Of a stretch of 64,000 nucleotides of DNA, positions 126 to 19,846 are shown one piece after another. Every line of letters begins with the position of its first letter. Position 1 is the first letter of the stretch. The notes below the pieces were generated by a model that saw only the letters and a program-made list of their open reading frames with translations, was not told the DNA's origin and did not search any database. The translations under genes and the position numbers were made by a program. The DNA comes from an uncultured delta proteobacterium (GTDB lineage: Bacteria > Desulfobacterota > Binatia > UBA9968): positions 64,001 to 128,000 of the forward strand of contig CAWDPO010000017.1 of NCBI GenBank assembly GCA_963804165.1, given 5' to 3'.

Positions 126-475
126 GTATAGGAAATTTAACTCCCCTGGTTTTTCTGACCGGAGATATATCGCTCAACCGGCGAGCGTTTCGATCATCGG
201 AGAGCGAACTGAAATTCGCGGTTTTGCTTCGGTGGGCTCGGACAACGCAGAGGTCGGATCGCCGGCAAGTGTTACAATCTCACCGCTTGCTCGCACTGAG
301 AGCGAGCGTTTCCATCGGCTTGGGTCGCTCAGCGGTTTGGGCTTCACCGATTGTCTGGAATAGATCGACTCGGCGAGCTGGGGCACGGGGCGGGGCGCGG
401 GTAGGTAGGCCGAGATGGCTGAGGATTTTGACAATCACCGGCGGATATTCGATCGCGGCAATGATCTTCAAAGCG
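126..475 (-). mobile_element. IS91/ISCR-family remnant: transposase C-terminus plus oriIS end (copy 1)
   Basis: Minus strand encodes ALKIIAAIEYPPVIVKILSHLGLPTRAPPRAPARR, an IS91/ISCR transposase tail, followed by about 215 bp ending GGGGAGTTAAATTTCCTATAC. Aligns with 17433-17775. Confidence 0.85.
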
Positions 476-565
476 CAAAAACACAAAAAGTAATTGAACT
501 TGTGATTGAATCTGCGTGTGCTTATCGTTGAAATTTGCTGGACGTGCGAAAACTTCTCAGAAAAC

Positions 566-677
566 TCACCACGGAGGTCACAGAGAACACAGAGGAAAAG
601 ACCGAGAGAAAGACTATTTTTAAAAAAATAGGAACCTCTCTCTCCCCCCTCTGTGAACTCTGTGCGCTCTGTGGTGA
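566..677. repeat. REP-like inverted repeat (CACAGAG…CTCTGTG type)
   Basis: TCACCACGGAGGTCACAGAGAACACAGAG … CTCTGTGAACTCTGTGCGCTCTGTGGTGA form two complementary arms. Confidence 0.7.
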
Positions 678-708
678 ATGATCCGAATTCTTTTGCTGCC
701 GCGCTGCA

Positions 709-1747
709 TCAGGTAGGACGAAAAAGGCACACGCATTTGCTCGAGTTGAAGATGTAGCACTCTGCCCAAGCCAGGATTTCGGCCTTGCGGTCATCCATGG
801 CACCCGCCAAGCAAATCCAATTTAAGAACTCATGTTGACCGGCGTCTCGGATCAACACTGGGTCCAAGCCCCGCCACTTCCGGTGCTCACCGCTTTTCAG
901 TTCCGCAAGTCGCTGGCGGTCTGTTTCTACGTCCGGCCATAGATAATAGTTCTTCGTTGTGAGCGACGCATGGGACCAGCTGGATGAACCGATCACAACC
1001 GCGCGCCAGGGGCTTTGTTTGATAATTTCCGCCACCGCCTTACCAAGATCATAGCAACGCCAGGGTGGTGGCGACGGAGGTGGCGGCTCAGAAACGTTTT
1101 CTAAAAGCCGACCGATCATCTTCGTGACTGGATACTGTATCATTGGGGACACGCAGATCTCTCCCATAACAATTTACCGTCAGCGGAATAATTGGGTAGT
1201 CAAAGCCTCTCTTGTCCAGGTCCAAGTACTGCATCGTTGTCGTAAAGGCATGCCCGTATTTCTCTTGATTGCGCAAACTCCAGCAGCAGGCCACGTCGAA
1301 TCCCTTTGTCACCAACCCCTGGACCAAATAATTACCAATCTGCTTGCTTCCCTTGATGTTCGCACGCTCGTCTTTAGAGTCAGGCGAATCTTTTACTGGA
1401 ATGTTATCGATAGCGAAGACGGCGAAGGGTGGAATACAGTCTTCTTTGAAAACCTCATACTGGTCGTCACCAAAAATGAGAACAAAATCTGGCTTGAATT
1501 CGTCGATGCACTCACGGGCCTTTCGATAGGCCGGCTGTAGTATTCGTTGGTACTCTGCGGCGAAGGCCATCCCTTCATCGCCGCCCCACTCCTCCTGCAT
1601 CTTTTTCGGCCAGTTCTTTGGGTCCTTCATATGAGCCGGCGTAAGTTCGCTTTGCAAATTGCGGCGCAAGTAAATATCCGTTAGACGCTGCAGCGGCCCC
1701 GAAATTCCCGGCCCGTGACTACAACCAATACCAAGAATCTCTCCCAT
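709..1747 (-). pseudogene. LigB-type extradiol ring-cleavage dioxygenase, one frameshift near 1140
   Basis: MGEILGIGCSHGP start, FGDDQYE, HAF, SSSWSH and GQHE motifs split across ORFs 1088..1822 and 709..1167. Removing one base rejoins them, so this may be a sequencing error. Confidence 0.8.
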
Positions 1748-1803
1748 AACATCCTCCCGGTTCGGACTGAACGATGAACCAAAATCTGGTCCGCGAAACC
1801 CTT

Positions 1804-2964
1804 CTAGGGCTCTCCGAAGCATTTCGTCGCGTTGTCCCAGAGCATTTTTCGCATGACCTCATCGCCCAGAGATTTCCACGCCAGTACCACGTCGGTGGAC
1901 CCCGGAAAGCGGGATTCGGGGTGAGGGTAATCGGACGAATACATTAACAAGCCGTCGCCGAGATAGTCGCTGACCATTTTGGCCATCTTCTCGCCTTCAT
2001 GGATCACCAGGCTGGCGAAAAAGCGCCCGCTGGTGATGTACTCGCTGGGTTTGTGAGCCAGATTCTCCGGCAGTGCGTAAGAGATGTAGTCGCTTTGGTC
2101 GTCCAACCGCGCTGCCCAAAACGGCAGCCAGCCAAAGCCGGACTCGAGGATGCAGTAGCGAATATTCGGGTATCGCTCCATGATACCGGCGCCGAAAAAT
2201 GCCGCCATCGCTCGCATCGCAGCCCACGGATGCGAGGCACTCCGGCCGAGGAACGGGTTGTCCCAGAGGTCGCGGTAGCCAGGGAAACCCTCGGTAAAAC
2301 TGTGATGCGCGACACAGAGCCCGGCTTCGTTCGCCACGGCCCAGATCGGCTCCAGATCTGGGTGATCGATGGGAAAGCCTTCATCCAAGTGCGGATAGAT
2401 CCCCGCAACCCATGCCGCGCGCGCCCAGGTTTTGATTTCTTCCACGGATACGTCAACCGCTTTATTGCTCACCACGACGAGAGATTTGAGCCGATGGGGA
2501 TATTTACTGCAAAAGTCGTTCGTAAAGCGGTGACCCGCGCGAATAAATCCAACCTCGATCTCAACGTCATCCGAAGGCGGCGGCGTTGGAGGAAGCATGA
2601 GCTGGACATCGACTCCTTCTTCATCCATGTCGCAAATGCGCGCTTCGAAATTGTCATCGGAAACGCCGGGTGTCGGAAAGCGGCTACCCATAAATTTTGG
2701 GTGATGCCGCTTAACCTCTTCCCTCGGACCCGCTTCGCCTAAAATCCGCAGTTTCTGGCGCCAGCCGGATCTTTTCTTAAACTGATAGCGGTGACGATAG
2801 GGCGGTTCCAAAATCTCGCCGGACCAGCCTACACGAAATGGAACTTTAAAGCTCTCCCACTCTGGCATCCGCTTGCGGATATTGGCATCGAAATAGGGCT
2901 CCAGGGTTTCCACATTTGGAGCGAGGTGCGTATCCGAATCAAAAATCTTAAAACGTTGGCGCAT
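1804..2964 (-). CDS. Amidohydrolase_2 family protein
   Basis: DSDTH metal motif, LESGFGWLP, SSDYPH. Confidence 0.9.
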   Translation of the reverse strand: MRQRFKIFDSDTHLAPNVETLEPYFDANIRKRMPEWESFKVPFRVGWSGEILEPPYRHRYQFKKRSGWRQKLRILGEAGPREEVKRHHPKFMGSRFPTPGVSDDNFEARICDMDEEGVDVQLMLPPTPPPSDDVEIEVGFIRAGHRFTNDFCSKYPHRLKSLVVVSNKAVDVSVEEIKTWARAAWVAGIYPHLDEGFPIDHPDLEPIWAVANEAGLCVAHHSFTEGFPGYRDLWDNPFLGRSASHPWAAMRAMAAFFGAGIMERYPNIRYCILESGFGWLPFWAARLDDQSDYISYALPENLAHKPSEYITSGRFFASLVIHEGEKMAKMVSDYLGDGLLMYSSDYPHPESRFPGSTDVVLAWKSLGDEVMRKMLWDNATKCFGEP

Positions 2965-3182
2965 TTGTGCTTCCTCCTTGCGCGCAAAGCAGCGACTTTA
3001 CGCTATCCATAACACAACCATCGGCCTCGTGAACAACGGCTGTTTAGCGCTAGCACAGATAAAACCGGATACGATTTTCGTTCCGGATGGCTGCGCAACT
3101 CGCATGCAGACCGCGGCGAAACCCGTTCCGAAGAGTCCGGTGCAAGTAGTCAACACCGCGTGGCAGCCTGGTGAGCGCAACG

Positions 3183-3263
3183 TCAAGAGACTTGCGCGAC
3201 ACAGACCGGGAGCCAATAGCGGCGCAGCAATTCGCCTGCAGGTTGTCCAGGTCCGACTCTCAC
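3183..3263 (-). pseudogene. N-terminal remnant of a Rieske aromatic oxygenase alpha subunit
   Basis: Minus frame reads VRVGPGQPAGELLRRYWLPVCVAQ*, matching the RVGPGTP(A/M)GELLRRYWxP start of phthalate-dioxygenase-like Rieske proteins. Confidence 0.65.
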
Positions 3264-3266
3264 CGA

Positions 3267-4139
3267 TCACTGCCAATAAAGTTTTCGATAGGTATCGATG
3301 AGCAGGTCATCCTGGCTGCCGCTCAAAAACTCCAGCAGCGTGCGGTTGAACTCGACGTCCCGCTCGTATTGCGGCCAGTGCCCTGATTTGTCAACTAGCA
3401 CGAAGCGCGAGCCGGGCACGCTCTGGTGCACTTTGAACGCTACCGGCCATGGGCAGGTGGGATTGTGCGTCGTCCAGAAAAACAGAATCGGTGCTTGAAG
3501 CTTGGGGATCTTGTCAATCAAGTGATAGATTTTCCGGTCCCGGGCTTGTAGCACTTCTTGCATCGCGGGGTTGCTGTAAATCTTCAGCCGGATATCGACC
3601 AACTCGTCGGGCAGAACTTTTGGATCGTGAAACAACCATTCCATGCGCTTGCGGATCGTCTCCTTGGTTGGAGTTCCGGTTGCTTCGCGGGTTAGCTCTT
3701 GGAGCTGAGTCAGTCCCGCCGTGTAGCCATGCTCGTTGGACGGAATCCCGCCGACAATGAGGGCCAGCCGATTGACTCGTTCTGGGTGTTCTGACGCGGT
3801 CAGCACGCTGATCTGCCCACCCTGAGATTCGCCAACTAGGTGAGCCTTTTTAACGCCCGCCGCATCCATGAAATCGAGCAAGTGTTTGGAGAAGTTCGGC
3901 AGGTTGTAGGTGATTTTAGGTTTGTCGGTGAAGCCATGGCCGAGGTAGTCAATCGCCAACACGCGGAACTTTTCCGCGAGTGGAATCAAGTTGCGCACCC
4001 ATGTCTCGGCGTGGCCGCCGCTGCCGTGCAGTAGAATCACCGGCTCGCCCTCGCCTTTCTCAAAGCAGCGGGTGCGAACCCCCCCGGCGTTGTAGTAGCG
4101 CTCATACTTTGCGTAGGTTTCTAGTTCCTGTGATGCCAT
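3267..4139 (-). CDS. Alpha/beta hydrolase, MhpC/BphD-like meta-cleavage product hydrolase
   Basis: LLHGSGG, GESQGG nucleophile elbow, C-terminal GHWPQYE. Confidence 0.85.
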   Translation of the reverse strand: MASQELETYAKYERYYNAGGVRTRCFEKGEGEPVILLHGSGGHAETWVRNLIPLAEKFRVLAIDYLGHGFTDKPKITYNLPNFSKHLLDFMDAAGVKKAHLVGESQGGQISVLTASEHPERVNRLALIVGGIPSNEHGYTAGLTQLQELTREATGTPTKETIRKRMEWLFHDPKVLPDELVDIRLKIYSNPAMQEVLQARDRKIYHLIDKIPKLQAPILFFWTTHNPTCPWPVAFKVHQSVPGSRFVLVDKSGHWPQYERDVEFNRTLLEFLSGSQDDLLIDTYRKLYWQ

Positions 4140-4292
4140 TTTTTTTCTCCTTTTATTGTCCAGCTTAAAACTAATATTGGTATCTTCTGAGTTACTCCCA
4201 CGCCGCCACTTGGTGCGACATCTGGATTTCTTTACGTTCCGCCGCCGATTGTAAAATCGCCAGGCAAACTTCCAGCGGGAAAAATTACAGGG

Positions 4293-4466
4293 TCAGGCGT
4301 GCATAATTGAAAATTTGGGGTTGGCGAGTTTACTGTACAGTTGCGCATGTCTGACCGCTTCCATGTGGCCAGCGTTTGCCTTGTCGCGCGCTGCAATCAA
4401 GCGATCCGGTCGCAGCAGGCTGCCGACATGGTCCGCCCGTGCGCTCCAAACATCACTTGTCGCCAT
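4293..4466 (-). pseudogene. N-terminal remnant of a MetE-like (methionine synthase II) protein
   Basis: RADHVGSLLRPDRLIAAR motif, after which similarity is lost. Confidence 0.65.
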
Positions 4467-4530
4467 GGATTGCCCCTCAATCACCGGTTGGCCTCATCGT
4501 TGGGGAAAATGTAAGTCAAGCGCTTTCCGG

Positions 4531-5457
4531 TCAGGCCATAATCTGAATCAGCGCATCGATGAAGCCTTCGTCGTCAAGCTCCTTGACCCAATGCATGTCC
4601 CAGAGAGCCAGTGGATTTAGGCGCTGGGCGCCGTATTCCTCGCAAGCGATCTCGTAGGTGGCGGCCAGGGCCTGCAGCGTCGGATACGGTTTGATCTGCA
4701 GCTTCCCAACGATGGCGTCAAAATGTTTCTCCATCTCATGCACATCGCTAATTTTCATCCGCTGCATCGGCTCTCCCGTGACAACTTTCATGGCTTCCTG
4801 CTTGTGATGCTTCATCCAGCAAATCCCATGAATGACCGCCTTCACATAGTTTTTTAATATGGCAGATTTCTCGCGCGCGAACTCGGCGGTGCACGCCTGG
4901 GCGTAATGGCTCACCACCGCAAGTTCGGGCACCGGGAGAAATTTTAAGCCGGCTTGCAAAGGCTCGGCTTGATAGAGCGGGTCCATGAAACAGGCGATGC
5001 ATTCGCCACTGACAACTTTCTTCCACTGTCCCCACCTTCCCACGTCCGCATCCTTGAAGATGGGAACTCCCACTTTGCCCTCTAATCCCATCATCCTCAG
5101 CCAGAGCGTAACAGTATAAGGCCGGCCCGAATCCCTGACCGCCATATTCTTGCCAGTGAATTCGCTCACGTTTTCGACATGCTTGGGCACCATCAAATCC
5201 AAACCACGGAGGATTCGGGGGGCGCAAAAGAAAGTTATTTTCTTCCCTTTGGTCGCTTCGGCGTAAAGAAATTCCACGTGGTCGATCAACACATCGGCTG
5301 AATCGTTGAACAGCGAAGCTTCGAACTCGCCATAATCTTTGATCTTCAAAACCTCAACGTTGATTCCATAATGTTTCGCGCCCATTTCTTTGATGCAGTA
5401 GATGACCGGAGTTCGATCATCGTCGCGATAGGCGACTCTCACAGTGTCCATAGACAT
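4531..5457 (-). CDS. NMT1/TauA-type substrate-binding-fold protein, no evident signal peptide
   Basis: Typical C-terminus (WDMHWVKELDDEGFIDAL). Likely start MSMDTVRVAY. Confidence 0.75.
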   Translation of the reverse strand: MSMDTVRVAYRDDDRTPVIYCIKEMGAKHYGINVEVLKIKDYGEFEASLFNDSADVLIDHVEFLYAEATKGKKITFFCAPRILRGLDLMVPKHVENVSEFTGKNMAVRDSGRPYTVTLWLRMMGLEGKVGVPIFKDADVGRWGQWKKVVSGECIACFMDPLYQAEPLQAGLKFLPVPELAVVSHYAQACTAEFAREKSAILKNYVKAVIHGICWMKHHKQEAMKVVTGEPMQRMKISDVHEMEKHFDAIVGKLQIKPYPTLQALAATYEIACEEYGAQRLNPLALWDMHWVKELDDEGFIDALIQIMA

Positions 5458-5624
5458 CAAACCTTCCTGCTGCTCGAGCGAAATGCTTGCGGCGACCAAA
5501 AGCTTCCTGCGGCTCGACAAAATTGTTTTCGATGCAAGGTCAACTTGACACCGATGAACCTAGCACGCTTTCGCAATTCCGAAAACGTGGGAACGAGCGG
5601 CGTCCGCAGAAATGTTTGCATTCA

Positions 5625-5702
5625 ATCGCTGCGCCGTCGCGCAGGGCGCAGAGCTTTGATGGCGATTTGCGGATGGACAGGGCCGCCCACGCCGCAGTCG
5701 GT
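5625..5702 (-). pseudogene. Diverged copy of the 3' end of the MetE-like gene at 22500..23705
   Basis: Aligns by eye at roughly 80% with 22525-22604 (TDCGxGGxVHPQIA…LRDGAAI). Confidence 0.75.
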
Positions 5703-5779
5703 CGGGCAATGGTGGCGAGTCGTCGATGACGGTGTTTGTTCAGCAGTCGTCTTCGGTTCTTGCTCTCAACGATTAAGAC

Positions 5780-7057
5780 TCAGGGGTTCTTCCAGGTGTC
5801 CCACGTCCGGAGGATCTGTCCGGCGATCTTGTCTGGGTCCGCGCCGGGGATCGGTTCGAACTTCTGCAGCCGGCCGGCGAAGCAATCTGCCAGGTACAAA
5901 TTGCCGAGTTGATCGGTGGTGATCCCGTGTGAACAGTTGAGCCGGCCAGCTTGGGGACCGGGAGCGCCCCAGGCGTACAGGAAGTTTCCGTTCAGATCGA
6001 ATTTGAGGATCCGACTCGTGGGCGCATCGCCGACCCAGATGAATCCCTTGTCGTCGATGAAGTGATTCACCATGAGGGTGGGCTGATTGGCAGGCCAGTG
6101 CGGTGATTTGAGCGGCCACATATCGAGGAACTTTCCGTTCTCGTCGAAGACCTGCATCCGTGCGTGTCCGCGGTCGATGACGAAGAGCCGGCGGTCCGCG
6201 CTGATCGCGATGCTGTGGACGGTATTCCACTCGTTCGGTCCCGGGTTCTTGGGATCCTTGGGCGGCCCGCCCCAGTCCATGATGAAGTTGTCATTCGCGT
6301 CGTACTTGACGACGCGTGTGCCGCCGTAGCCATCGGTGATGAAGTAGGTTCCGTCGGGCAGCCACGCAATGTCGGTCGGCCGGTCAAAGGTGTTCGGCCC
6401 ACGACCGCGCACGCCGAGCTGCCCTTTGCTGTGCACCAGTTTACCGTCCTGCGTAAAGCGGTAAATCATGTGGAGCTGGTCGTCGATGATCCAGACGTGC
6501 TTCTGTTTATCGTAGGGGCTGATCTTGATCTGGTGCGGCCCGCGACCGCAGGGAAACTTCGAGAACAGCTCATCGAGGTGCGGCCACTCGCCGACGAGGT
6601 TGCCCTGGCGATCGAGCACGATGATCGAGTGCTGGAACCGGCGCTCCCATCCGCGCTTTTTATCAGCCTGGCAGGTGGCCGTTAAGCCGTCCGAGTTTCC
6701 GCTAGCGTTGCCGCGCGACGGATTGAGCGCCGCGTAGGGTGTCCAAGGAGCGGCGTCCTTCGGCAACGGCAGCTCGCCGCGCATGGCGACCCAGATTCGG
6801 TCGGGGGTTTCTGCGTAGACGCCGCCAAAGGATCCCCAGGTCCAACCGTCGTGCGAGTGACGCGTGTCCGGCAACGGCTTGGGCCATCCTTCGACGACCC
6901 TGTAGTGACCCGTAGGCCAGTCCTGGTGGCTCCATCGACCCGACCGCGTAGCGCCAGTGCTACACGCCACCGCGCCGATCGACAACAGCGCGCAGCCAAC
7001 GATCAGCCGCGCGAAAGAATGGTTGCGAGACATGAAGCCTCCAGGGGAATTACTCAT
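5780..7057 (-). CDS. NHL-repeat beta-propeller lipoprotein (peptidyl-alpha-hydroxyglycine lyase-like)
   Basis: Lipobox-like AVAC; repeats FDRPTDIAW, TVHSIAI, CSHGITTD. Start may be 7033. Confidence 0.8.
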   Translation of the reverse strand: MSNSPGGFMSRNHSFARLIVGCALLSIGAVACSTGATRSGRWSHQDWPTGHYRVVEGWPKPLPDTRHSHDGWTWGSFGGVYAETPDRIWVAMRGELPLPKDAAPWTPYAALNPSRGNASGNSDGLTATCQADKKRGWERRFQHSIIVLDRQGNLVGEWPHLDELFSKFPCGRGPHQIKISPYDKQKHVWIIDDQLHMIYRFTQDGKLVHSKGQLGVRGRGPNTFDRPTDIAWLPDGTYFITDGYGGTRVVKYDANDNFIMDWGGPPKDPKNPGPNEWNTVHSIAISADRRLFVIDRGHARMQVFDENGKFLDMWPLKSPHWPANQPTLMVNHFIDDKGFIWVGDAPTSRILKFDLNGNFLYAWGAPGPQAGRLNCSHGITTDQLGNLYLADCFAGRLQKFEPIPGADPDKIAGQILRTWDTWKNP

Positions 7058-7091
7058 CGCTTTTCATCAACGAGTAGGATTCCTCAATAAG

Positions 7092-7210
7092 GTAGAGGAA
7101 AATTCAAGCAAGTTTTTTTCCGGCCCGAGCAATACCGCACGACCGGGAAAGTTGTCAATCACCTTCTGTCTGCGGAAGCTTCGGCCGGCATGGGCACCGC
7201 AGCAGTCGGA
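7092..7210 (-). mobile_element. Degenerate IS91/ISCR oriIS end (copy 2)
   Basis: GTAGAGGAAAATTCAAGC…TTTTTTCCGGCCCGAGCAATA…GACCGG…AGTTGTCAAT…GCTTCGGCCGGCATGGGC aligns with 17433-17555. Ends 35 bp upstream of the NHL gene. Confidence 0.7.
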
Positions 7211-7286
7211 GCGAGAAGGCTAACAAATCGTTACCGATGAACTCGAGCTTGTTGACCGGCGTCTGGGATTACGTTTCAATTCAGCG

Positions 7287-8303
7287 ATGAAGAAAAAGAT
7301 TGCGCTGGTTTTGATCCTGATATTCGGCGCTGGGTTGAACGGCTTGGCCCAAACGAGCTCTACACCCAGCGCGCCGACCGCGGGTATCGTCGCCGCCACG
7401 AAAAAATTCCTCGCCACGCTTGATGATGCCCAGCGTGGCAAGGTCGTCTTTGACTTCAAAGACGAGGCGCAGCGCAAGCGCTGGTCGAATCTTCCGACAG
7501 CAATCTTCAAACGCCAGGGTTTGCGCATGGGCGACCTCACAAAACCGCAGCGCGAGGCCGCGCTGGCCGTCCTGGCAGCGGCGTTCAGTCCGCAGGGGTA
7601 CGAGAAGGTTCTGCAGATCGTCGAGGCCGACGAGGTGTTGAGAAAATCGAGCGGCCAGTCGATGTTCGGGCGCGATGAATATTACGTTTCATTCCTCGGC
7701 CAGCCTTCCACCACCGAGCCGTGGATGATTCAGTTCGGCGGGCACCATCTCGGCCTCAACCTCACGCTTGCCGGCGAGCAACGCACGCTCGCCCCTAGCC
7801 ACACCGGCGCGCAGCCAGCGATTTATGAACTCGAAGGCAAGACCGTGCGCCCCCTGGGTCGCGAGACCGACAAGGCTTTTGCCCTGCTTAGTTCGCTGAA
7901 CGAAGCGCAGCGCAAGCAGGCCATCCTCGACTTTCAGATGCGCGACCTTGTACTCGGGCCCGGCCGCGACGGGCAGACGATTCAGCCGGAAGGAATCAAA
8001 GGCTCGGCCTTGACCGAGAAGCAGCGCGAGATACTGCTGGATCTCGCCAGCGAATGGACCGGCATCCTGCACGAAGCCGTCGCGAAAGCGAGAATGGACG
8101 AGATGAAAAAGAATATCGCCGAAACCTGGTTCGCGTGGAGCGGTCCGACTGAAAGGGGCAGCGCCGCTTACTTCCGCATCCAAGGGCCGACGGTCATCAT
8201 CGAATACGCCCCGCAGCGCCTGGGCGGCGACGCGACAAAGCACATCCACACGATTTACCGCGATCCCACGAACGATTACGGAATGAAATGGTGGAAGCGG
8301 TGA
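7287..8303 (+). CDS. DUF3500 domain secreted protein
   Basis: Signal peptide; RWSNLP, QFGGHHL, YFRIQGP and HIHTIYRDPTNDYG motifs. Confidence 0.85.
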   Translation: MKKKIALVLILIFGAGLNGLAQTSSTPSAPTAGIVAATKKFLATLDDAQRGKVVFDFKDEAQRKRWSNLPTAIFKRQGLRMGDLTKPQREAALAVLAAAFSPQGYEKVLQIVEADEVLRKSSGQSMFGRDEYYVSFLGQPSTTEPWMIQFGGHHLGLNLTLAGEQRTLAPSHTGAQPAIYELEGKTVRPLGRETDKAFALLSSLNEAQRKQAILDFQMRDLVLGPGRDGQTIQPEGIKGSALTEKQREILLDLASEWTGILHEAVAKARMDEMKKNIAETWFAWSGPTERGSAAYFRIQGPTVIIEYAPQRLGGDATKHIHTIYRDPTNDYGMKWWKR

Positions 8304-8884: not shown

Positions 8885-9112
8885 AATGGATGGGGAGGAA
8901 ACAAGCAGGACAACTTCGGCTTTGCTTCCGACCAGGAGTTTTTAGCAACAGTCCGGAACAGTCAAGCGGCGGTACAACGCCTGATTTGTCAGCGGAGCGC
9001 GAAATAGATAAGGATAGAGGCTGGATTCGATACTCGTCAATATGCGTTTTCAAACGACTCTTGCATGCGCCCTCGGCAGTTTCACTGTTGCCGACGCAGA
9101 CAGCTGCTTGCA

Positions 9113-11493: not shown

Positions 11494-11589
11494 GGGTCAT
11501 CTCCTGCTATATGCGATTTGTCTAACAGCACTATAAAGACTGAGCCGCGAGCGACACTTTTTCGCGCGCAAAGATCACTTTCTTCATCA

Positions 11590-11656
11590 ATATAGTTTTT
11601 GCGTCGGATCTGTCCAATACTTTTTTATCAGCAGAAAGTATAGACGTTCGTCTATA
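11590..11656 (-). promoter_or_regulatory. Putative sigma70 promoter plus palindromic operator upstream of the amidohydrolase pair
   Basis: Minus strand TTGGAC-N17-TATATT; perfect inverted repeat TATAGAC-GTTC-GTCTATA at 11639-11656, beside a LysR gene. Confidence 0.4.
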
Positions 11657-11754
11657 GAGGGCCAACTCTTGTGCGTTCGGCCGATGAATTCGGACGCGCC
11701 ACGCTAGAAGTCGCTCAAACGGAAAATTGCCGATGTTGAGAGAAGCGCGAGCCG

Positions 11755-12663
11755 CTAGAACTTGCGTTGAGATTTACGTAGGAGTCCGAGAAACTCCTGT
11801 GCGTTGGGAGAGAGCGGTTGGTCTTTCTTATAAACTACAAACGACTCGATCTCGATCTTCTTTAAATCAGTAATACTTAAGATCTTGAGATCACCTCTGC
11901 CAACCTCGTTCTTCAAGTGATCGCGGTAAAGCACTCCCACGCCTAAACACTTCATGACCGCAAGTTTGACAGCCTCGGCAGACTCACATTCCATAAAAAC
12001 GTTTAGCTCAAAACCTTGCTGCTCGATCTGCTTTAGAAGCTCCTGAGTTTTGGATTGACTTCTTTGCTTCACGATCAGAGGCAACTGGGCCAGTTCGGCC
12101 AAAGTCAGCCTTTTTCTCCTGCCCAGCGCGTGGTTAGTCGAAACAAAAAAAACAATCTTCTCAGCGCGACATGGCTCAACGTGAAACCTGCCTGAAACCT
12201 TCATCTGGGAAAGGTTGGTTACGACCGCAACCTCAATGCCGTCAGACTCGGCAAGAAGGCGCTCGATACTTAGACTGTCCCTGGTCCTGAGAGTTATCTG
12301 GATGAGAGGATGAGTTTTTTTAAAACTAGCCAAAAGGGATGGAATCAGAGACGCTGATGGGCCGTGTGACGCGCCGATCATCAGCCGACCGGGTGCCGGC
12401 GAAGGAGTGCGCGGACCGAAATTGTTTTCCAGGCTTTCGACTCGACGAAGAATTTCCTCCACTTCGCGCTGAAAGAGTTGTCCCTTTTCGGTCAGCTCGA
12501 TTCCACGGCCGGTTTTCCTGTACAGCTTCGTTTTATAGGACTCTTCCAGCGATCTCACTTGCTTGAACACCGAAGGCTGGCTGATCCGCAACTGTTTCGA
12601 GGCTTTGGTAAAGTTACGGTGATGGGACACCACCTGGAAAATTTTCAGCTGATGCAAGGTCAT
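11755..12663 (-). CDS. LysR family transcriptional regulator
   Basis: MTLHQLKIF…FTKASKQLRISQPSV…LTEKG HTH followed by a substrate-binding domain. Confidence 0.9.
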   Translation of the reverse strand: MTLHQLKIFQVVSHHRNFTKASKQLRISQPSVFKQVRSLEESYKTKLYRKTGRGIELTEKGQLFQREVEEILRRVESLENNFGPRTPSPAPGRLMIGASHGPSASLIPSLLASFKKTHPLIQITLRTRDSLSIERLLAESDGIEVAVVTNLSQMKVSGRFHVEPCRAEKIVFFVSTNHALGRRKRLTLAELAQLPLIVKQRSQSKTQELLKQIEQQGFELNVFMECESAEAVKLAVMKCLGVGVLYRDHLKNEVGRGDLKILSITDLKKIEIESFVVYKKDQPLSPNAQEFLGLLRKSQRKF

Positions 12664-12916
12664 AATCTTGGCTCGTTCTCTTAAAAGCGCCGTGTTTGTG
12701 CGATGCCTATCAGGACGTGCCCTGGCGATCAATATACAAATATCTATAGCTAGCTTTGACAAAAAAGTAGTGGACGCCAGACAGGCGACCGCCGTAGGTT
12801 AGGCAAGACATATTTCTAGAAGTCCCGTGAAACGGTGGGAGCCTATACGATTGGGCCAGGCCAACGGCTGTTGCGCATGAACGGAATAAAACCACATCCT
12901 TAGAAGGACGCTCACC

Positions 12917-13975
12917 ATGACATTTTGCAATGCCAGAACTTTCGTCGGCGTTAGCATTTGCTTGTCTCTCATGAGTATACCCCTCTGTGCGGCAGATATC
13001 TCACAGATTGCGCTCTATCGCGGCGCTGACCGGCAAACGAAGCTGGAAAAAGCGGCGCAAGCGGAAGGATCGGTCGTCTGGTACACTTCTATCGCATTGG
13101 GAGAGTCGCCTCGTTACGTCGAACTGTTCGAAAAACGCTATCCTTTCATTAAAGTCCATCTCGTTCGCTCCAACTCTTCCAGAATGGCGCAACGATACAT
13201 AGCCGAATATCAGGCGGGAACTTTTCTGGCTGATATTCTCGATACCGGTGATACCACCATAGAATTTTTTCGGCGCAAGGGAATGCTTCAATCGTATTAC
13301 TCCCCGCTTGCGGAGAAATTCGACAAGCGATTTATTCAAAATCAAAATTTTTGGGTCGCCAATCGGGCGACCATGACTGTGCTCGGATACAATACGCGTC
13401 TTGTCAAAGCTGCGGAGGTTCCAACTCGCTATGAAGAAGTGCTTGATGCGAAGTGGAAGGACAAATTTTCATTAGAGCGCGAGGATTCGCCATGGTTTAT
13501 GGCCCTGATGGAATATTGGGGCGAACAGAAAGGCAGGGTTTTCTTCCAAAAACTGCGCGCACAGAATCCGAGGATTCGTACCGGCCACACGCTTCAGGCA
13601 CAGCTCATTGCGGCGGGTGAGGATGCATTTTCTCCTGACACACATAGTGGAGGGATCGCCTCGGCTCAGCGTGCCGGCGCCCCCGTCGATTGGATTGATC
13701 TTGAGCCCGTGGTCGCCGCAAACAATGTCGCCGCTTTGGGAAAAAACGCGCCGCACCCCAACGCGGCAATGCTTTTCCTTGATTTTATGTTGAGCAAAGA
13801 CGGCGCTCAGAAGGTTCTCCGAGACGTTAACCGTATACCTACGCATCCCGAGGTTCTGCCGAATCCCCCTCGCTTGCGCGAGGGATTCAATTTTATTGTC
13901 ATCGATCCTGCGAAGTATAACGACAGTGCCGCACGCTATGGAAAATTGTGGCGTGAATGGGTGCTGCGAGAGTAG
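12917..13975 (+). CDS. ABC transporter extracellular solute-binding protein (Fe3+/thiamine-like)
   Basis: Signal peptide, EGSVVWYTS, APHPNAAMLFLDF. Confidence 0.85.
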   Translation: MTFCNARTFVGVSICLSLMSIPLCAADISQIALYRGADRQTKLEKAAQAEGSVVWYTSIALGESPRYVELFEKRYPFIKVHLVRSNSSRMAQRYIAEYQAGTFLADILDTGDTTIEFFRRKGMLQSYYSPLAEKFDKRFIQNQNFWVANRATMTVLGYNTRLVKAAEVPTRYEEVLDAKWKDKFSLEREDSPWFMALMEYWGEQKGRVFFQKLRAQNPRIRTGHTLQAQLIAAGEDAFSPDTHSGGIASAQRAGAPVDWIDLEPVVAANNVAALGKNAPHPNAAMLFLDFMLSKDGAQKVLRDVNRIPTHPEVLPNPPRLREGFNFIVIDPAKYNDSAARYGKLWREWVLRE

Positions 13976-14173
13976 ATTTCGGCCAACACGAACCTGGGAG
14001 GGACAGCGACGCGGTATCAGGCTTTGCTTATTTGATTCTCCCGGGTCGAAGGCGAGAAAACCCTAAACAAGCAAAAAGGGCAAAATCGGTGTTTGCTTTT
14101 TGTCAAAGCTTTTTCGATTCCCGAACTCTTCAGTGAAGCTCTCCTCCGTTTAGCTTGTTGAAGGATTCGCAGT

Positions 14174-14272
14174 TTATTCGACGACGACCTGCGCAACATG
14201 GATGTTCTGCGGCTGCAGCTCTAGCGCCATGCTTTGGACCAATCCGGTCAATCCCATTTTGCCCATCGCGCG
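14174..14272 (-). pseudogene. Internal fragment of an SDR oxidoreductase
   Basis: AMGKMGLTGLVQSMALELQPQNIHVAQVVV matches the SDR segment after the catalytic Lys. Confidence 0.6.
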
Positions 14273-14277
14273 GGGAT

Positions 14278-14458
14278 AAGGGTCAAATCCTTTGTTGACA
14301 ATTACTTCTCGGCAACTGCATGTTTCTGAGAAACTGGATACTTGCCTAGGCCGTCTTGGCAAATCCTTCTTTCACTTCTTTCTCGTAGGCGTGCAGCTTG
14401 TTAACGCTCGGGCGCTCCTGCATGCGTTTGAGTCAACAAAAGGTTCGCGTCCCCTTTT
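14278..14458. mobile_element. Inverted-end mini-element enclosing a GST 3' end fragment
   Basis: Left AAGGGTCAAATCCTTTGTTGAC; right GTCAACAAAAGGTTCGCGTCCCCTTTT. Interior 14346-14430 matches 25044-25128. Confidence 0.55.
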
Positions 14459-14489
14459 CTCTCTCTCCCCCCCAAAAAAAAATCAAGCG

Positions 14490-14606
14490 CTGCATCGCCC
14501 AAGCCAACACCGGGATTGTCATCAAACAGAAAGGCGATTGACAACTCTCTAAGTCCGGCGATATTGCTCGCGTCAGAAAAAAAGGTGCTTGAAATATCCT
14601 ATACAG
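14490..14606 (+). mobile_element. IS91/ISCR oriIS end (copy 3) with outward TTGACA
   Basis: …GATTGACAACTCTCTAAGTCCGGCGATATTGCTCGCGTCAGAAAAAAAGGTGCTTGAAATATCCTATACAG. Reverse-complement homolog of 17431-17550, about 30 bp upstream of the aldolase ATG. Confidence 0.8.
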
Positions 14607-14635
14607 AAACACCCGACTGAATTGCGCGAGGTACC

Positions 14636-15424
14636 ATGGACGACATGACATCGAGTCCCTATCCACCGTTCGCCGGGGTCGAGCCCTACGGCACCGTCCG
14701 TTCGGTTGTCGACGAACGGGCGCATCGCAAACGGATGTGTGCGCTTGGATACCGCATCTTCGGCGCGATGCGGTGGGGGATGCTCGGCGACGGCCACGTA
14801 TCGGCCCGTGACCCCGAGTTGACCGACCACTTCTGGCTGCTCGACTGGGGCGTCCCCTTCGGCGAGGCGACGGTCCACCAGTTGGTGCTGGTCGGACCCG
14901 GTGGCGAAGTGAAGGATGCCGACGGCAACGCGACCGGTGCCGTCAACACGGCCGGCTACAACATCCACCATCCGCTGCTCGCTGCCCGTCCCGACGTCGT
15001 GAGCGCATCTCACACCCACACCGCCTTCGGCACGCCATGGTCGGCCAACGTCGAGCCGTTTCGCGCGATCAGTCAGGAGGCGTGTGCCTTCGTGTTCGAC
15101 CAGGCACTCTTCGACGATGAGGATGTGGAGGTGCTTTCGATCGATGGCGGCAAGCGCATCGCCGCAGCACTCGGCAACAGGAAGTTCTGCATCCTGCGCA
15201 ACCACGGCCTGCTCACGGTCGGCCGGTCGGTGGAGGAATCGATCGGATGGTTTGTGATGGCCGAACGGGTGGCTGAGGTCCACGTGAAAGCGCCGAACGG
15301 GCGACCGATCTCTAACGAGGCCGCTGCGGTTGCAGCGTCGACACTCGCCCCTGACCCCGTCGGATGGCGGATGTTCCAGTGGGTCCAGCGGTCGCTCGTT
15401 CCCGATCGATCGGTGGTCGACTGA
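14636..15424 (+). CDS. Class II aldolase/adducin family protein
   Basis: GHVSARD, HTHT, LRNHGLLTVG; GAGG RBS; visibly GC-rich. Confidence 0.9.
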   Translation: MDDMTSSPYPPFAGVEPYGTVRSVVDERAHRKRMCALGYRIFGAMRWGMLGDGHVSARDPELTDHFWLLDWGVPFGEATVHQLVLVGPGGEVKDADGNATGAVNTAGYNIHHPLLAARPDVVSASHTHTAFGTPWSANVEPFRAISQEACAFVFDQALFDDEDVEVLSIDGGKRIAAALGNRKFCILRNHGLLTVGRSVEESIGWFVMAERVAEVHVKAPNGRPISNEAAAVAASTLAPDPVGWRMFQWVQRSLVPDRSVVD

Positions 15425-15877
15425 ACAGCGCGCCCGGCCAGCTACGCCGGCGTCAGACCGATGAGTCGATGATCGCAGAAGCAAATGGGGTCAAGTCCGC
15501 TCGTCACACTGAAACAACAGGACCGCGCGCGGTCCTATGGAACGCTTGGTGAGAGCGACGAAAATCCGAATGTCAAAACATAGGACTCAACCCCAAGGTA
15601 TTTAAAAGCTAAAAGCGGACTTGACCCCTTTGGGACTTTCTCGTCTCCGATCGCTCGGTGGTCGACTGAACAGCGCGCCCGGCCAGCTACGCCGGCGTCA
15701 GACCGACGAGTCGATGATCGCAGAAGCAATGGGGTCAAGTCCGCTCGTCACACTGAAACAACAGGACCGCGCGCGGTCCTATGGAACGCCTGGTGAGAGC
15801 GACGAAAATCCGAATGTCAAAAACATAGGCTCAACCCCAAGGCATTTAAAAGCTAAAAGCGGACTTGACCCCTTTGG
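15395..15877 (+). repeat. About 240 bp tandem direct repeat (two copies), each with a ~142 bp GGGGTCAAGTCCGCT…AGCGGACTTGACCCC inverted-end element
   Basis: Copies at about 15395-15633 and 15640-15877 differ by a few substitutions and indels. The unit begins with the aldolase 3' end. Confidence 0.9.
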
Positions 15878-15926
15878 CTGTGGACCCCTTTGGCTGTGTT
15901 GACCCCTTTGGCTGTGTTTGGCTGTG
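15867..15926 (+). repeat. Stutter repeat GACCCCTTTGGCTGTG x3 plus partial
   Basis: Units at 15867, 15883 and 15901, partial at 15917. Confidence 0.9.
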
Positions 15927-16268
15927 CAAAGCGGGCGGCCAAATGGCGCACGGTGCAGATCAGGCCTCTGTAACTCGCGCTATCGACAGCGTAGCGGCGA
16001 CGACCTCTGGGTTTATGACTCGGATATCCCGCACGAGCCGCCTCTACAGTGCGGTCGATGCTTTCGTCAAACGAGACGATATCAGCATCAGAGTAAGCGA
16101 AAGCTACTCCGCGCCTTTTACGGGCTGAGCGGTTCGAACGGGAGGTTAAGGGAACAAGGCTGAGCATACACGAGAAGTCGAGCGGCCAAAGTGATTTGTT
16201 TAGTTATCCAGCCGGACCCTGCAGCCTACACACGGGATACCAACATCCGGCAAGATAGAATCCAGATT

Positions 16269-16308
16269 CAGGCCTGACCCTACCACTCCAGGCCTGACCC
16301 TACCACTC
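16269..16308 (+). repeat. 20 bp tandem CAGGCCTGACCCTACCACTC x2
   Basis: Exact duplication seen directly. Confidence 0.9.
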
Positions 16309-16339
16309 TGCCCCTTTATCTTAATCTTCGGAAAGAGCC

Positions 16340-17260
16340 TTAACGCGTATCGATCGCCCGATTGTAATAGGAGAGATCTACGTACTTCTCCGCCGGTGGC
16401 AGCGGCGGCTTAAGGTATCCCATCTCGGCGCGCAGGGCGACAACGGATTTCAACCCCGGAAGATTCAATTCCGCTTTCGGATATAGACCGTAGTCCGAAT
16501 CCAGCAGGACATCTAAGGTCTCTTCCGCCACTTTGTCTTCAAGGCCGTTATGTGTAGCAAGAAGCTCCAAACAGGAGGCACGATTGTGAATGTCAAAACA
16601 CCATTCCGTCGCCTCGACATAAGCGCGAATATAGCGAACCAGCAAATCCCGATTCTTTTCAGCCCAAGAGCGCTTGGCCGCGCCCACAGTTCCCTGATAG
16701 CAGGAAACGATCTGATCGCCGCGCGCCAGCAGGTGGCAGCCTTGCGCCACAGCGTTGCCCGCGAACGGCGGCAAAAGCATGGTGCCGGCAACTCTACCCT
16801 CCAACAATGCTTGATAGCGCCGGTCGACGCCGCCGATCTCGACGAATTTGTAATCGTCGGGACCGAAGCCATTCGAGCGCAGCAGCTTTTCCAGGATGAA
16901 AACGAAACCGCTCGCGCGCGCGTCGACGGCCAGTTCTTTCCCGCGTAGCGACTCGACGGTCGTCATCCCCGGCGCTCCGACGATGCTCAAGAGGCCGCTA
17001 TGGAGTCCCATAAAGATAAAGAGGCTCGAAGGACCGCCGCCGAAGTCTTCCACATCGGCCACAATATCGTCAGCGCCCGTGTGGCCAATCTCGAATTCCC
17101 CCTTCCGCAAAGCGTCGCTGATATAAAGCGAGCCCGGCGTATAGGTTATGTCGATATCGAGACCATGCCGCGCAAATATTCCCTGCTCCCGGCCGGCGTG
17201 TACCGGAAGATTGTAGCCTGCCCGGAATTGGATCAGTCTAAGTCTTGTAAGACTGGCCAT
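16340..17260 (-). CDS. NitT/TauT-type substrate-binding-fold protein, no evident signal peptide
   Basis: GIFARHGLDI, LRGKELAVDA, KYVDLSYY; AGGAG RBS. Confidence 0.85.
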   Translation of the reverse strand: MASLTRLRLIQFRAGYNLPVHAGREQGIFARHGLDIDITYTPGSLYISDALRKGEFEIGHTGADDIVADVEDFGGGPSSLFIFMGLHSGLLSIVGAPGMTTVESLRGKELAVDARASGFVFILEKLLRSNGFGPDDYKFVEIGGVDRRYQALLEGRVAGTMLLPPFAGNAVAQGCHLLARGDQIVSCYQGTVGAAKRSWAEKNRDLLVRYIRAYVEATEWCFDIHNRASCLELLATHNGLEDKVAEETLDVLLDSDYGLYPKAELNLPGLKSVVALRAEMGYLKPPLPPAEKYVDLSYYNRAIDTR

Positions 17261-17278
17261 GGGAATCTCCTAGAGATT

Positions 17279-17909
<631 letters not shown>

Positions 17910-17910
<1 letters not shown>

Positions 17911-17942
17911 GCGGAAATGCGGTGAACCTTGGCGATCGGCAT
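17910..17942 (-). pseudogene. First 11 codons of a probable ring-opening amidohydrolase (cyanuric acid hydrolase/barbiturase family)
   Basis: AAGGA RBS then MPIAKVHRISA, cut by the transposase remnant. Matches the rhizobial cyanuric acid hydrolase N-terminus as I recall it; unverified. Confidence 0.5.
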
Positions 17943-17950
17943 GGTGTCCT

Positions 17951-19396
17951 TCAACAGCAGGGGGGTTGTGAGCGGTAGTGCGCCGCGACCGCGTGCTCGA
18001 GTTCGCCGATCGCCGACACGAGGCCGGAATTTTGCTGCATGTCGGCGCGAAGCCGCGCCAGCATGTCGTCGCGCATCGCCGGATAGTCGATGCCGAGCAC
18101 CTGGCCGTCGCGCACGACGGAGCGGCCCGCGACGATCAGCTCGTGGATGTGGCGCATGGTGGTCCGCGAGAACAAAAGATCCTGCGGATCGAGATCGGCG
18201 CGGAGCCGCTCGTGGTCGACCGCATCCCAGTCGAGAACCAGGATGTCGGCCGGCATGCCGGGCGCGAGCGCGCCGCCGTCGTCCTTGTTGGTGACCGAAA
18301 GACGGCCATTTTGGAACGCCATGCGCAGCATCGATGGGCGATCCACGTCGGTGGTGAACGCCACGCCCTGATGCAGCAGATGCGCGAGCCGCATCTCGCG
18401 CAGCGCATCGTCGTCCTCGTCGAACGTCGAGCCGTCGAGGCCGAGCGCCACGCGGCAGCCGCGCTTCACCATCTCCTTCAGCGGGGCGACGCCCGAGCGC
18501 AGATGCAGATTCGAGCTGGTGTTGACCGAGATGGTCGCGCCGCGCGCGGCGATCAGCTCCAGCTCATCGGGTCGCGCCCAGGTGCAATGGGCGAGCGTCA
18601 GCCGCGGGCTGAGGAAGCCGATCCCGTCGAGGAATTTCAGGATGCCGCCCGGATAATTGGCGTCGAGCCAGGCCCGCTGCGTGCTGGTCTCCAGGAGGTG
18701 CATGTGAATCCGGCGGCCGGTGCGCTTCGACGCGTCCGCGATCGCTTCCAGAAGCTCATGCGTGCACCATTGCACCGCCTGCGGGCCATACTGCACGTCG
18801 AACATCGGATTGGCGGCCGCCCCGGCCACCGCATCGACCAGCGCGATCTGCTGCTCGACCGGCAGCGGCGGGCGCAGATAGCGCTTCTCGACCTCCGCGC
18901 GCGCCTGCGGCGAAAGCGCATCGAGGATCGGCTCGGACGGTCCGTACACCAGCGGGTTACGGTTGCGCATCGCGATCGCAAAGCCCACCCGCACGCCGAC
19001 GTCGCGCGCCGCGCGCGCGACCTCGGCCACCTCGGTCGGCAAATCAGTGAGACTCTGGACGCGCGTGTAGTGCACCATGACGGCCGCCGCGCCGCCAAGC
19101 GCGCTGCGCGACAACGACACCGCGCCCGCAAGATAAGGATCGACCGACGGCAGCAGCGCCAGATAAGCGATCCAGGTTTCCAGCGGCTTGCCCGCGCCGC
19201 CATAGGCCGAGGTCGACGTCACGCGCGCATGATCGTGAGCGTTGGTGAGCGCCGGCAGCGCCAGCAGGCGCCGGGCGGCGCCGGCCCTGGCCGGCTCGAC
19301 CGAGACGATGCGATCGCCGTCGATCCGGATAACGTGCGCGCCCGCGGCCGGCGCAGTGGCATCCGGCTGGATGTGGGAGCACGTCAATTCACGCAT
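17951..19396 (-). CDS. Amidohydrolase_1 family (AtzA/TriA/SAH-deaminase-like)
   Basis: NAHDH, HMHLLE, AHC, SNLHLRSG, LGLDG; very GC-rich. Likely start MRELT. Confidence 0.9.
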   Translation of the reverse strand: MRELTCSHIQPDATAPAAGAHVIRIDGDRIVSVEPARAGAARRLLALPALTNAHDHARVTSTSAYGGAGKPLETWIAYLALLPSVDPYLAGAVSLSRSALGGAAAVMVHYTRVQSLTDLPTEVAEVARAARDVGVRVGFAIAMRNRNPLVYGPSEPILDALSPQARAEVEKRYLRPPLPVEQQIALVDAVAGAAANPMFDVQYGPQAVQWCTHELLEAIADASKRTGRRIHMHLLETSTQRAWLDANYPGGILKFLDGIGFLSPRLTLAHCTWARPDELELIAARGATISVNTSSNLHLRSGVAPLKEMVKRGCRVALGLDGSTFDEDDDALREMRLAHLLHQGVAFTTDVDRPSMLRMAFQNGRLSVTNKDDGGALAPGMPADILVLDWDAVDHERLRADLDPQDLLFSRTTMRHIHELIVAGRSVVRDGQVLGIDYPAMRDDMLARLRADMQQNSGLVSAIGELEHAVAAHYRSQPPCC

Positions 19397-19455
19397 TGGC
19401 ACCGGCCCGGCAAGCGAAAACCCGCAACCCGATGATGCGGGCTCTCTCATTGCGG

Positions 19456-19725
19456 TCAATTGGACAGCACCGCCGGCATCCGATCGGCCTTGGCCGGCAG
19501 GAAGTCACGGCTGAACACGTCGGCGGCTTGGGCACGCGCGGCAGCTCGAACGACTCCGCGATGGTCGCTGCCGCCGCCGCCATCCGCTCGTCGCTCACGT
19601 CGCCGATGCCCAGCGAACGCGACTCGGGGGTGTCGATCAGCGTCTTGTAGACATAGAGCATGCGGCGCTTTTCGATGTCCTTCTTGATCAGCGCCTCCCT
19701 CTGCGCGAGAAGATCGATCGCGGCA
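19456..19725 (-). pseudogene. C-terminal fragment of a NitT/TauT ABC SBP, cut at the oriIS
   Basis: AAIDLLAQREALIKKDIEKRR…GIGDVSDERM…DVFSRDFLPAKADR*, with one indel. Confidence 0.75.
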
Positions 19726-19727
19726 CT

Positions 19728-19846
19728 GTATAGGAAATTTAAACCACCTTTTTTTTCTGGCCTGAGCCATATCGCCGGACCGGCGAGTTGTCAATTTCTT
19801 TTCTGTCTGATGAAATTCGCAGTTTTGCTTCGGTCGGCTTGGGCGG
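19728..19846 (-). mobile_element. IS91/ISCR oriIS end (copy 5)
   Basis: Near-identical to 17433-17545; ends GGTGGTTTAAATTTCCTATAC; truncated at the stutter repeat 19847-19883. Confidence 0.9.

Follow-up and report, generated by a model that had tools for sequence, protein, structure and literature searches.

Introduction

Elements of the ISCR/IS91 family are rolling-circle elements, and in those of the ISCR group the oriIS end forms the 3′ boundary (PMC9376610). ISCR elements are blamed for the spread of resistance genes, and two reports on the group state that their transposition has never been demonstrated experimentally (PMC6218425, PMC9376610). Here we describe a 64-kb stretch of DNA from an uncultured bacterium of Binatia type (contig CAWDPO010000017.1, positions 64,001 to 128,000; the whole of this stretch is called the window), in which six shortened copies of one such oriIS end lie among catabolic and transport genes. 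With moderate confidence, we read them as eroded relics of a soil subfamily of ISCR/IS91 elements that mark the seams of a mosaic catabolic cluster.

Several described systems are close to this locus. For transposition of IS91 with the transposase supplied in trans, the terminal 82 bp of oriIS together with the adjoining tetranucleotide are reported to be enough (PMC13181058). An IS91-type element of Sphingobium is described as having its oriIS 167 bp after the coding sequence (PMC5737581). The oriIS of ISCR1 is placed inside a 232-bp region, and two outward promoters of this region are reported to raise downstream expression 13-15 fold (PMC6218425). For the sdpA cluster of Sphingobium herbicidovorans, the mosaic structures were explained by one-ended transposition and circular forms (PMC5737581), and ISCR8 is reported to be multi-copy on environmental plasmids (PMC13393415). 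In the ISCR28 sandwich, a remnant with an extra oriIS stands upstream of the gene and a second oriIS downstream of it, and capture between the two successive oriIS was proposed (Yuan et al. 2024, as described in PMC12772301).

Results

Copies of the terminus in the window

The window holds six copies of one terminus (ending …TTCCTATAC), at 126, 7092, 14604, 17433, 19728 and 20621. All of them lie within the first 20.7 kb, and five of the six share one orientation. The initial annotation of this DNA had listed the first five as an array of IS91/ISCR oriIS ends, and their coordinates and orientations were reproduced by repeat, motif and alignment searches. The motif GTATAGGAAATTT or a close variant is found on the + strand at 126, 17433 and 19728, GTAGAGGAAAATT on the + strand at 7092, and GTATAGGATATTT on the - strand with its end at 14604. 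The end motifs TTCCTATAC, TTCCTCTAC and ATCCTATAC were as annotated, and the dinucleotide AG continues three copies (14604, 17433 and 19728), as had also been noted.

The terminus was recovered by direct-repeat search, inverted-repeat search, motif search and alignment alike. Its 13-mer, with up to two mismatches allowed, gave 8 matches in the window against 0.97 expected, a count that none of 100 shuffles reached; six of the eight are true copies, and those at 5975 and 17139 were unsupported by the profile described below. One contig scan of genomes with a degenerate terminus pattern yielded seven related loci (L001-L007, taken with 2-kb flanks). All seven come from soil metagenome-assembled genomes (MAGs), three of them from a Binatia MAG; the source genome of the window is not among them. 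An nhmmer profile was made from 12 aligned copies (first ~125 bp of the terminus) and run over the whole window. The five longer copies were detected with E = 1e-34 to 1e-22, and the sixth, 38 bp at 20621-20658 and absent from the initial annotation, with E = 1.7e-4. No copy was found by the profile between 21 and 64 kb. A scan of the whole window against Rfam at gathering thresholds gave 0 matches; the terminus repeat is thus not a known RNA.

Identity of the terminus

Judged from its sequence and from the coding remnant beside it, the terminus is the oriIS (3′) end of an ISCR/IS91-family element, as had been annotated. At 17433 the terminus lies 214 nt after the stop codon of a transposase remnant, on the strand reading …AAATTTCCTATAC. 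The remnant (last ~87 residues) matches the NCBIfam family ISCR_clade_Ia with E = 1.2e-12 over profile positions 442-487 of 509, the score being 47 bits against a cut-off of 925. It aligns with 79% identity to residues 400-484 of a 486-aa database protein (P0048) that has both Zn_Tnp_IS91 and Y2_Tnp domains. In a tblastn search, 2,878 plasmids had transposases that it matches, those of ISVsa3 and the IS91 family. In a large protein collection 767 longer proteins matched; among the best 120 of these, 16 carry both Zn_Tnp_IS91 and Y2_Tnp and are 434-502 aa long. The copy at 126 retains a shorter piece (~65 residues) of the same transposase C-terminus. These are the two copies, 126-480 and 17433-17950, in which a transposase C-terminus had been annotated.

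The distance from stop codon to terminus is similar in a described element. ISVsa3 (ISCR2), as carried by a Klebsiella plasmid, has TTCCTATAC 233 nt downstream of the stop, compared with 214 nt at 17433, and a Piscinibacter remnant has the similar end …AAATTCCTATGC. The register seen at 17433 recurs at 126 and in loci L003 and L002/L007.

At the level of DNA the matches were few. The longest copy gave one weak blastn match among plasmids, to Piscinibacter and to the transposase part only, and a consensus-like terminus had no blastn match in 72,556 plasmids. A Pfam scan of the 87 open reading frames (ORFs) of the window found no transposase or integrase and no Zn_Tnp_IS91 or Y2_Tnp domain. No terIS was found in the six copies or in the related loci; the 5′ part of the element is missing throughout. 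No shared terIS-like motif was seen before the three head-to-tail junctions described below or at unit ends.

Extent and truncation of the copies

All copies, in the window and in the seven related loci, share the outer base, and the point at which they are cut on the inner side varies. The longest copy in the window (17433..17950, - strand, ~520 bp; nhmmer E = 1.7e-32) comprises the oriIS end, the 214-nt spacer and the C-terminal remnant (~17650-17910, stop codon at 17647-17649). The copy at 126..480 (- strand, ~355 bp; E = 4.8e-26) comprises the oriIS end, a 3′ untranslated stretch and the last ~65 transposase codons (283-480); it is the most diverged, with 74.8% identity over 353 bp to 17433-17777. 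Three copies are reduced to the oriIS end, about 105-140 bp each, in agreement with the initial annotation. The copy at 19728..19848 (- strand, 120 bp; E = 1.1e-34) is 92.7% identical to that at 17433. The one at 14484..14604 (+ strand, 105-125 bp; nhmmer 14490-14604, E = 5.7e-30) is the sole inverted copy, with its outer end at 14604. The one at 7092..7230 (- strand, 105-140 bp; nhmmer 7092-7196, E = 1.4e-22; blastn to 7211) fills the spacer between divergent NHL (-) and DUF3500 (+) genes. Of the copy at 20621..20658 (- strand) the outermost 38 bp remain, detected also as a two-mismatch match and as part of an inverted-repeat pair.

The related loci show the same gradation: ~500 bp are kept in L003, at least 275 bp in L002/L007, ~107 bp in L005 and ~70 bp in L004, and L001 and L006 keep ~70 bp followed by ~60 bp common to these two only. 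L004 has a second, diverged terminus copy at 506-601 (nhmmer). The contigs of L002 (at its start) and L007 (at its end) are interrupted within the repeat, and the two are 96.8% identical over 410 bp. Within the remnant of L002, a Binatia contig, an IS200-like Y1 transposase ORF is found at 410-1237, so one single-strand transposon has inserted into another.

The catalytic domain is absent from all six copies of the window, and all are non-autonomous, as had been proposed. The initial annotation had further called for an intact IS91 tnpA; none was found in the window, and no ORF with Y2_Tnp or Zn_Tnp_IS91 lies within 2 kb of any of the seven related loci. The short copies are colinear with the long ones up to a variable cut, with no second end added. 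Thus the "ori-only elements" of the initial annotation do not form a discrete class and are part of a truncation continuum (inner cuts at 38, ~70, ~107, ~120, ~355, ~500 and ~520 bp). An identification as a MITE-like non-autonomous element was rejected, there being no second end and no fixed length.

At L004 and L005 the same outer junction is crossed with 96.7% identity over 1301 bp, and the ends kept are ~70 and ~107 bp, respectively. For this pair at least, insertion therefore came before the loss of the inner side. Truncation of the same type recurs elsewhere, as indicated by four database proteins (P0113, P0034, P0046 and P0088) in which a host N-terminus (glutaredoxin, methyltransferase, response regulator or flavoprotein) is fused to the transposase C-terminus. 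The copies of the window differ from one another by 7-30%, and often their closer matches are in other genomes, which points to several arrivals and not to local duplication.

Two further features of these loci were noted. The stretch shared by L004 (770-2067) and L005 (768-2067) is a 1.3-kb module of a hydrolase gene and 70 bp of origin end. One of the two bins bears the label Candidatus Udaeobacter and the other "delta proteobacterium", and the DNA flanking the module on either side is unrelated. Either the module was transferred between lineages or a 3.7-kb contig was mis-binned. In L005, the alpha/beta-hydrolase gene and the origin-end relic lie between the two copies of a 455-bp direct repeat (30-469 and 2946-3393; 85% identity), in which no ORF reaches 100 aa.

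Genes and junctions at the outer ends

Two of the outer ends abut genes that are cut. At 17433 the outer end is where the C-terminal ~45 residues of a short-chain dehydrogenase (SDR) gene begin (17279..17432, - strand; NCBIfam SDR profiles ~208-248 of ~250, E down to 6e-15). At 19728 it is where the tail of an NMT1/THI5-type solute-binding protein gene begins (19459..19725, - strand); a 264-aa PF09084 protein matches the tail at 71% identity (65% of the query aligned), and the tail had no direct Pfam or NCBIfam match. Across each relic, the missing half of the cut gene is not present. These outer junctions are thus not simple insertions.

Beyond the SDR tail, the first whole gene outward of the copy at 17433 encodes an NMT1-type solute-binding protein (16340..17260, - strand; Pfam NMT1_2/NMT1), with its ATG at 172 nt. 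The binding-protein tail outside 19728 is followed by a TRZ/ATZ-type amidohydrolase gene (17951..19459, - strand; Pfam Amidohydro_1, NCBIfam chlorohydrolase/deaminase families). Both arrangements, a binding protein reached through an SDR tail and an amidohydrolase reached through a binding-protein tail, had been described in the initial annotation and are borne out by the family matches. The segment 17951-19727, which holds the amidohydrolase gene and the binding-protein tail, has 68.3% GC compared with 56% for the window, and its limits are the inner cut of the copy at 17433 and the outer end of that at 19728.

At three points a copy is joined head to tail with what precedes it, exactly at its outer end: 7091/7092, 19727/19728 and 20620/20621. 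Read along the - strand, the order is the unit beginning at 20621, then 19728-20620, then 17433-19727 and, further on, 126-7091. The ori-to-ori unit 19728-20620 (893 bp) consists of one gene, a terminator-like hairpin and a 120-bp end. Its gene (20054..20605, - strand) encodes a 183-aa conserved protein with no Pfam family, whose best named match (92% identity) is in a Candidatus Binatia MAG and which some sources label a double-stranded beta-helix metal enzyme. An AGGAGA motif and ATG stand 15 nt from the copy at 20621, and the hairpin with a T run follows the stop at ~20000-20031. The same layout is seen in L004 at 506-1996, where an alpha/beta-hydrolase gene lies between two co-oriented ends.

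Two copies stand directly upstream of whole, co-oriented genes. The NHL-repeat gene (5780..7057, - strand; Pfam NHL) has an ATG 34 nt from the end of the copy at 7092 and a better-placed GGAGG with ATG at 58 nt. The class II aldolase gene (14636..15424, + strand; Pfam Aldolase_II, NCBIfam) has GAGG and ATG 31 nt out from the copy at 14604. The short distances given for these two genes by the initial annotation were reproduced. The NHL and DUF3500 genes, divergent around the copy at 7092, have similar third-position GC contents (GC3; 0.796 and 0.761), so that this copy looks like a plain intergenic insertion.

Neighbour orientation was considered for 11 termini, those that are independent and have enough flank, with L001, L003 and L004b left uncalled. 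A family-supported co-oriented gene or gene tail lies outside 8 of the 11, and an opposed one outside none (0/11). A Shine-Dalgarno motif with ATG is found 15-58 nt out from 4 of the 11. The four genes directly outside the ends rank 1, 3, 4 and 7 of 32 in GC3, the first of these being the amidohydrolase gene (0.851).

On the inner side of the copy at 14604 lies a short stretch, 14345..14431 (- strand), that is 93% identical by blastn over 87 bp to 25043-25129. The latter is the 3′ end of an ORF, and the former is therefore a displaced gene tail beside the relic; from its translation alone it may be glutathione-transferase-like.

Outward promoter-like motif

A perfect TTGACA, a spacer of 16-18 nt and a TATNNC or GATATT hexamer, facing outward, are present in 11 of the 12 copies that are at least 70 bp long, with 9-10 of 12 matches to the consensus. 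The motif is sigma-70-like and lies within the outer ~75 bp, about 37 nt from the element end (35-39 nt between motif and end). It is lacking at 20621 because only the outermost 38 bp are left there. A general promoter scan reported the copy at 14604 (TTGACA-16-GATATT at 14538-14565, + strand). The relics probably act at present as outward promoters for the co-oriented gene just outside, by analogy with ISCR1. Of the portable-promoter role put forward in the initial annotation, the signal has gained support from the conserved TTGACA motif and from the ISCR1 POUT precedent (described in PMC6218425), and promoter activity itself stays a prediction.

Other features of the window

Just inside the cut end of the copy at 126, a 39-nt imperfect inverted repeat rich in CACAGAG (557-686; arms 52 nt apart) may be another small repeat element, and a similar G/GA-rich run adjoins the cut end of the copy at 14604. 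From the last aldolase codons onward, a 244-bp unit occurs twice in tandem (15395-15877, 96% identity), and small tandem repeats of 16-20 bp are found at 15865-15918 and 16269-16308.

In several genes the reading frame is broken into two that overlap or adjoin; these genes are either pseudogenes or the result of assembly indel errors. They encode a LigB dioxygenase (709-1822), an SBP_bac_5 protein (20673-22192), a TPP enzyme (32725-34433), an aldehyde dehydrogenase (45578-46992) and an MFS transporter (51232-51824). Paralogous stretches with 65-84% identity occur at 25831-26264/27387-27816, 30446-30920/32799-33276 and 55842-56166/56509-56833; they include two TPP-enzyme genes and two tandem phosphatase-like genes. 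A tRNA scan of the window gave 0 genes.

Discussion

Relics at the probable seams of a mosaic cluster

The six relics derive from one ISCR/IS91-family rolling-circle element, and none of them can move itself. Uncultured soil bacteria of Binatia type commonly carry this subfamily. We hold it somewhat probable that the relics mark the seams of a mosaic catabolic cluster; the two cut-gene junctions and the 68% GC segment limited by element edges fit a mosaic whose assembly was assisted by the element. The full element would run from terIS through a transposase of ~486 aa and ~214 nt to the oriIS ending in TTCCTATAC. Full or already shortened copies would have entered the cluster several times. 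Some may have brought neighbouring DNA by one-ended rolling-circle transposition, and others may have landed beside the origin end of an earlier copy, which would account for the head-to-tail order at 7091/7092, 19727/19728 and 20620/20621. Deletions from the inner side would then have removed the transposase and terIS and left the outer 38-520 bp. One-ended capture and landing beside earlier ends are inferred from the head-to-tail order together with the cut genes and the GC block; loss of the transposase side after insertion is supported by the pair L004/L005.

Several observations weigh against this account. A full-length copy with this terminus is absent from the window and from all seven related loci, and since no full-length DNA copy was found, the link to an active element runs through protein homologues. 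The 12 outer flanks have no conserved IS91-type target tetranucleotide (GTTC, CTTG or the like, with T as the second base); they end in TTCT, TACT, CACT, ATCT, AGCT, TTAT (twice), TGAC, CGAC, GGCA, TAAG and CACG, and ..CT is loosely preferred. In the alignment of 12 copies, a weak subterminal palindrome of 8 predicted, imperfect pairs lies 29-52 nt from the end; its sequence hardly varies, one pair shows a double change, and the covariation is not informative. Folding z-scores were between -2.3 and +0.7, and single-strand folds were no better than those of shuffles in 4 of 6 tests. The GC3 ranking was made post hoc, and other genes distant from any end are equally GC-rich. As to the promoter, the general scan flagged just one copy, and the conserved TTGACA may have been kept for origin function in the active lineage and not for transcription. 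Single-strand transposons that insert with a strand bias, or survivorship, could have produced the co-orientation of the neighbours.

Alternative explanations

The same relics could be a plain graveyard, in which independent insertions into a tolerant region decayed neutrally, brought no genes and have no present function. The continuum of truncation, the high divergence and the lack of any remaining transposase are what this would predict. The many split frames (LigB, SBP_bac_5, aldehyde dehydrogenase, MFS) suggest decay, unless they are indel errors, and the copy at 7092, between divergent genes of similar GC3, is readily explained in this way. Simple insertion does not explain two flanks that start inside genes whose other halves are not across the relic, nor a 68% GC block bounded by element edges. 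Moreover, 6 copies lie in 20.7 kb and 0 in the other 43.3 kb, 8 of the 8 called neighbours are co-oriented, and the -35 hexamer is retained even in the most eroded of the long copies. We therefore consider neutral decay alone an unlikely, if serious, alternative. Should the mosaic instead have been made by repeat-driven false joins in metagenome assembly, contigs would be expected to break at the repeat, as L002 and L007 do inside it, and the GC jumps at element edges could be produced as well. False joins would fall inside the shared repeat, but the seams here are at its outer base or at unique inner cuts (17950/17951), and identity above 90% is found in one pair of copies only, over 123 bp. 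An assembly chimera is extremely improbable.

A more active role was also considered, in which the ends are live: a transposase supplied in trans would nick one oriIS, replicate inward and stop at the next co-oriented oriIS, and the ori-to-ori cassettes so released (17433-19727, 19728-20620 and 126-7091) would be re-inserted beside origin ends, with no integrase or attC involved. Such cycling would be in keeping with the three head-to-tail junctions exactly at outer ends and with the two single-gene ori-to-ori units (19728-20620 of the window and 506-1996 of L004). The IS91 report of an 82-bp end sufficing with transposase in trans, the proposal of capture made for ISCR28, and the presence of full-length transposases of the subfamily in metagenomes lend it some plausibility. 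But no cassette with ori-to-ori limits was seen at two places in the window and the seven related loci; the L004/L005 module takes in the upstream end and the gene but not the downstream end. One "site" has just 38 bp, the 7-30% divergence resembles decay, the 64 kb contain no transposase, the copy at 7092 resembles a plain intergenic insertion, and the ISCR group as a whole stands, according to the two reports cited above, without an experimentally demonstrated transposition. Live ends are thus quite unlikely. The stronger version, in which they yield single-gene circles and each end also brings the next gene a promoter, as a rolling-circle counterpart of the integron, is more doubtful still. 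If live ends were true, catabolic operons of soil bacteria would be assembled by a rolling-circle route, and the locus would be a natural substrate for a first demonstration of ISCR movement.

These considerations also bear on the broader picture drawn in the initial annotation, that of an integron-like array in a catabolic island. No recombinase is present at the array, there are no discrete cassettes, and no cassette with ori-to-ori limits was seen in two arrays. The integron-like, mobilised-in-trans reading is possible, though quite unlikely. The word island finds little to attach to, there being no tRNA, no integrase and nothing beyond patchy GC. The novelty of the proposal was overstated as well, given that capture between successive oriIS and links between ISCR elements and catabolic genes have already been published. 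On present evidence, eroded relics of a known kind of mosaic-building element, and the window as an ordinary footprint of its family, describe the locus best.

Comparison with known systems

Integron arrays resemble the locus in that single genes or small groups, most of them co-oriented, follow one another with copies of one short site in between. They differ from it in having an integrase, attI, attC, a common promoter at one end and discrete cassette limits. Here no site-specific recombinase or integrase family was found among the 87 ORFs scanned over 64 kb, and no discrete cassettes were seen: the site copies range from 38 to 520 bp, and the only module found in two contexts among the seven related loci (L004/L005) is not ori-to-ori. 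The chemistry, too, would be HUH nicking and not tyrosine recombination.

With ISCR2/ISVsa3 the relics share the transposase family (the remnant matches ISVsa3 by tblastn and ISCR_clade_Ia of NCBIfam) and the position of TTCCTATAC, about 215-235 nt after the stop in both. Truncated, co-oriented copies flanking passenger genes are a familiar pattern for ISCR2. The two are not close in sequence, with 45-63% identity over 45-78% of the 103-aa remnant and no plasmid match of the terminus DNA. The setting also differs, with genes of catabolism and transport in place of resistance genes beside the copies, in an uncultured soil bacterium.

In ISCR1, an origin-end region of ~230 bp stands just upstream of variable co-oriented genes and has outward promoters of sigma-70 type, POUT (as described in PMC6218425); the relics resemble it in the TTGACA-N16-18 motif about 37 nt from their end. 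The ISCR1 promoters were shown there by reporter fusions and minimal inhibitory concentrations, whereas at this locus a conserved motif is what is seen. ISCR1 copies also retain their transposase, unlike those of the window. The ISCR28 sandwich has, as it is described in PMC12772301, the layout of 19728-20620, 17433-19727 and L004 506-1996; one partner is a whole element there, whereas both partners are relics here.

The nearest parallel in gene content is offered by IS91-type elements and ISCR8/22/23 in catabolic clusters such as that of Sphingobium herbicidovorans sdpA, where copies, some of them partial, are described among degradation genes (PMC5737581). Those clusters are reported with whole transposase genes and a sequenced circular form; here relics are all that remains. 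The small, well-defined ori-to-ori units of the window are material on which rolling-circle capture could be tested. At this locus, numerous origin-end relics left by a soil subfamily lie at the seams of a mosaic of catabolic genes and carry a conserved promoter-like motif that faces outward. A pattern described from clinical plasmids and pesticide degraders is thereby extended to uncultured bacteria of Binatia type.

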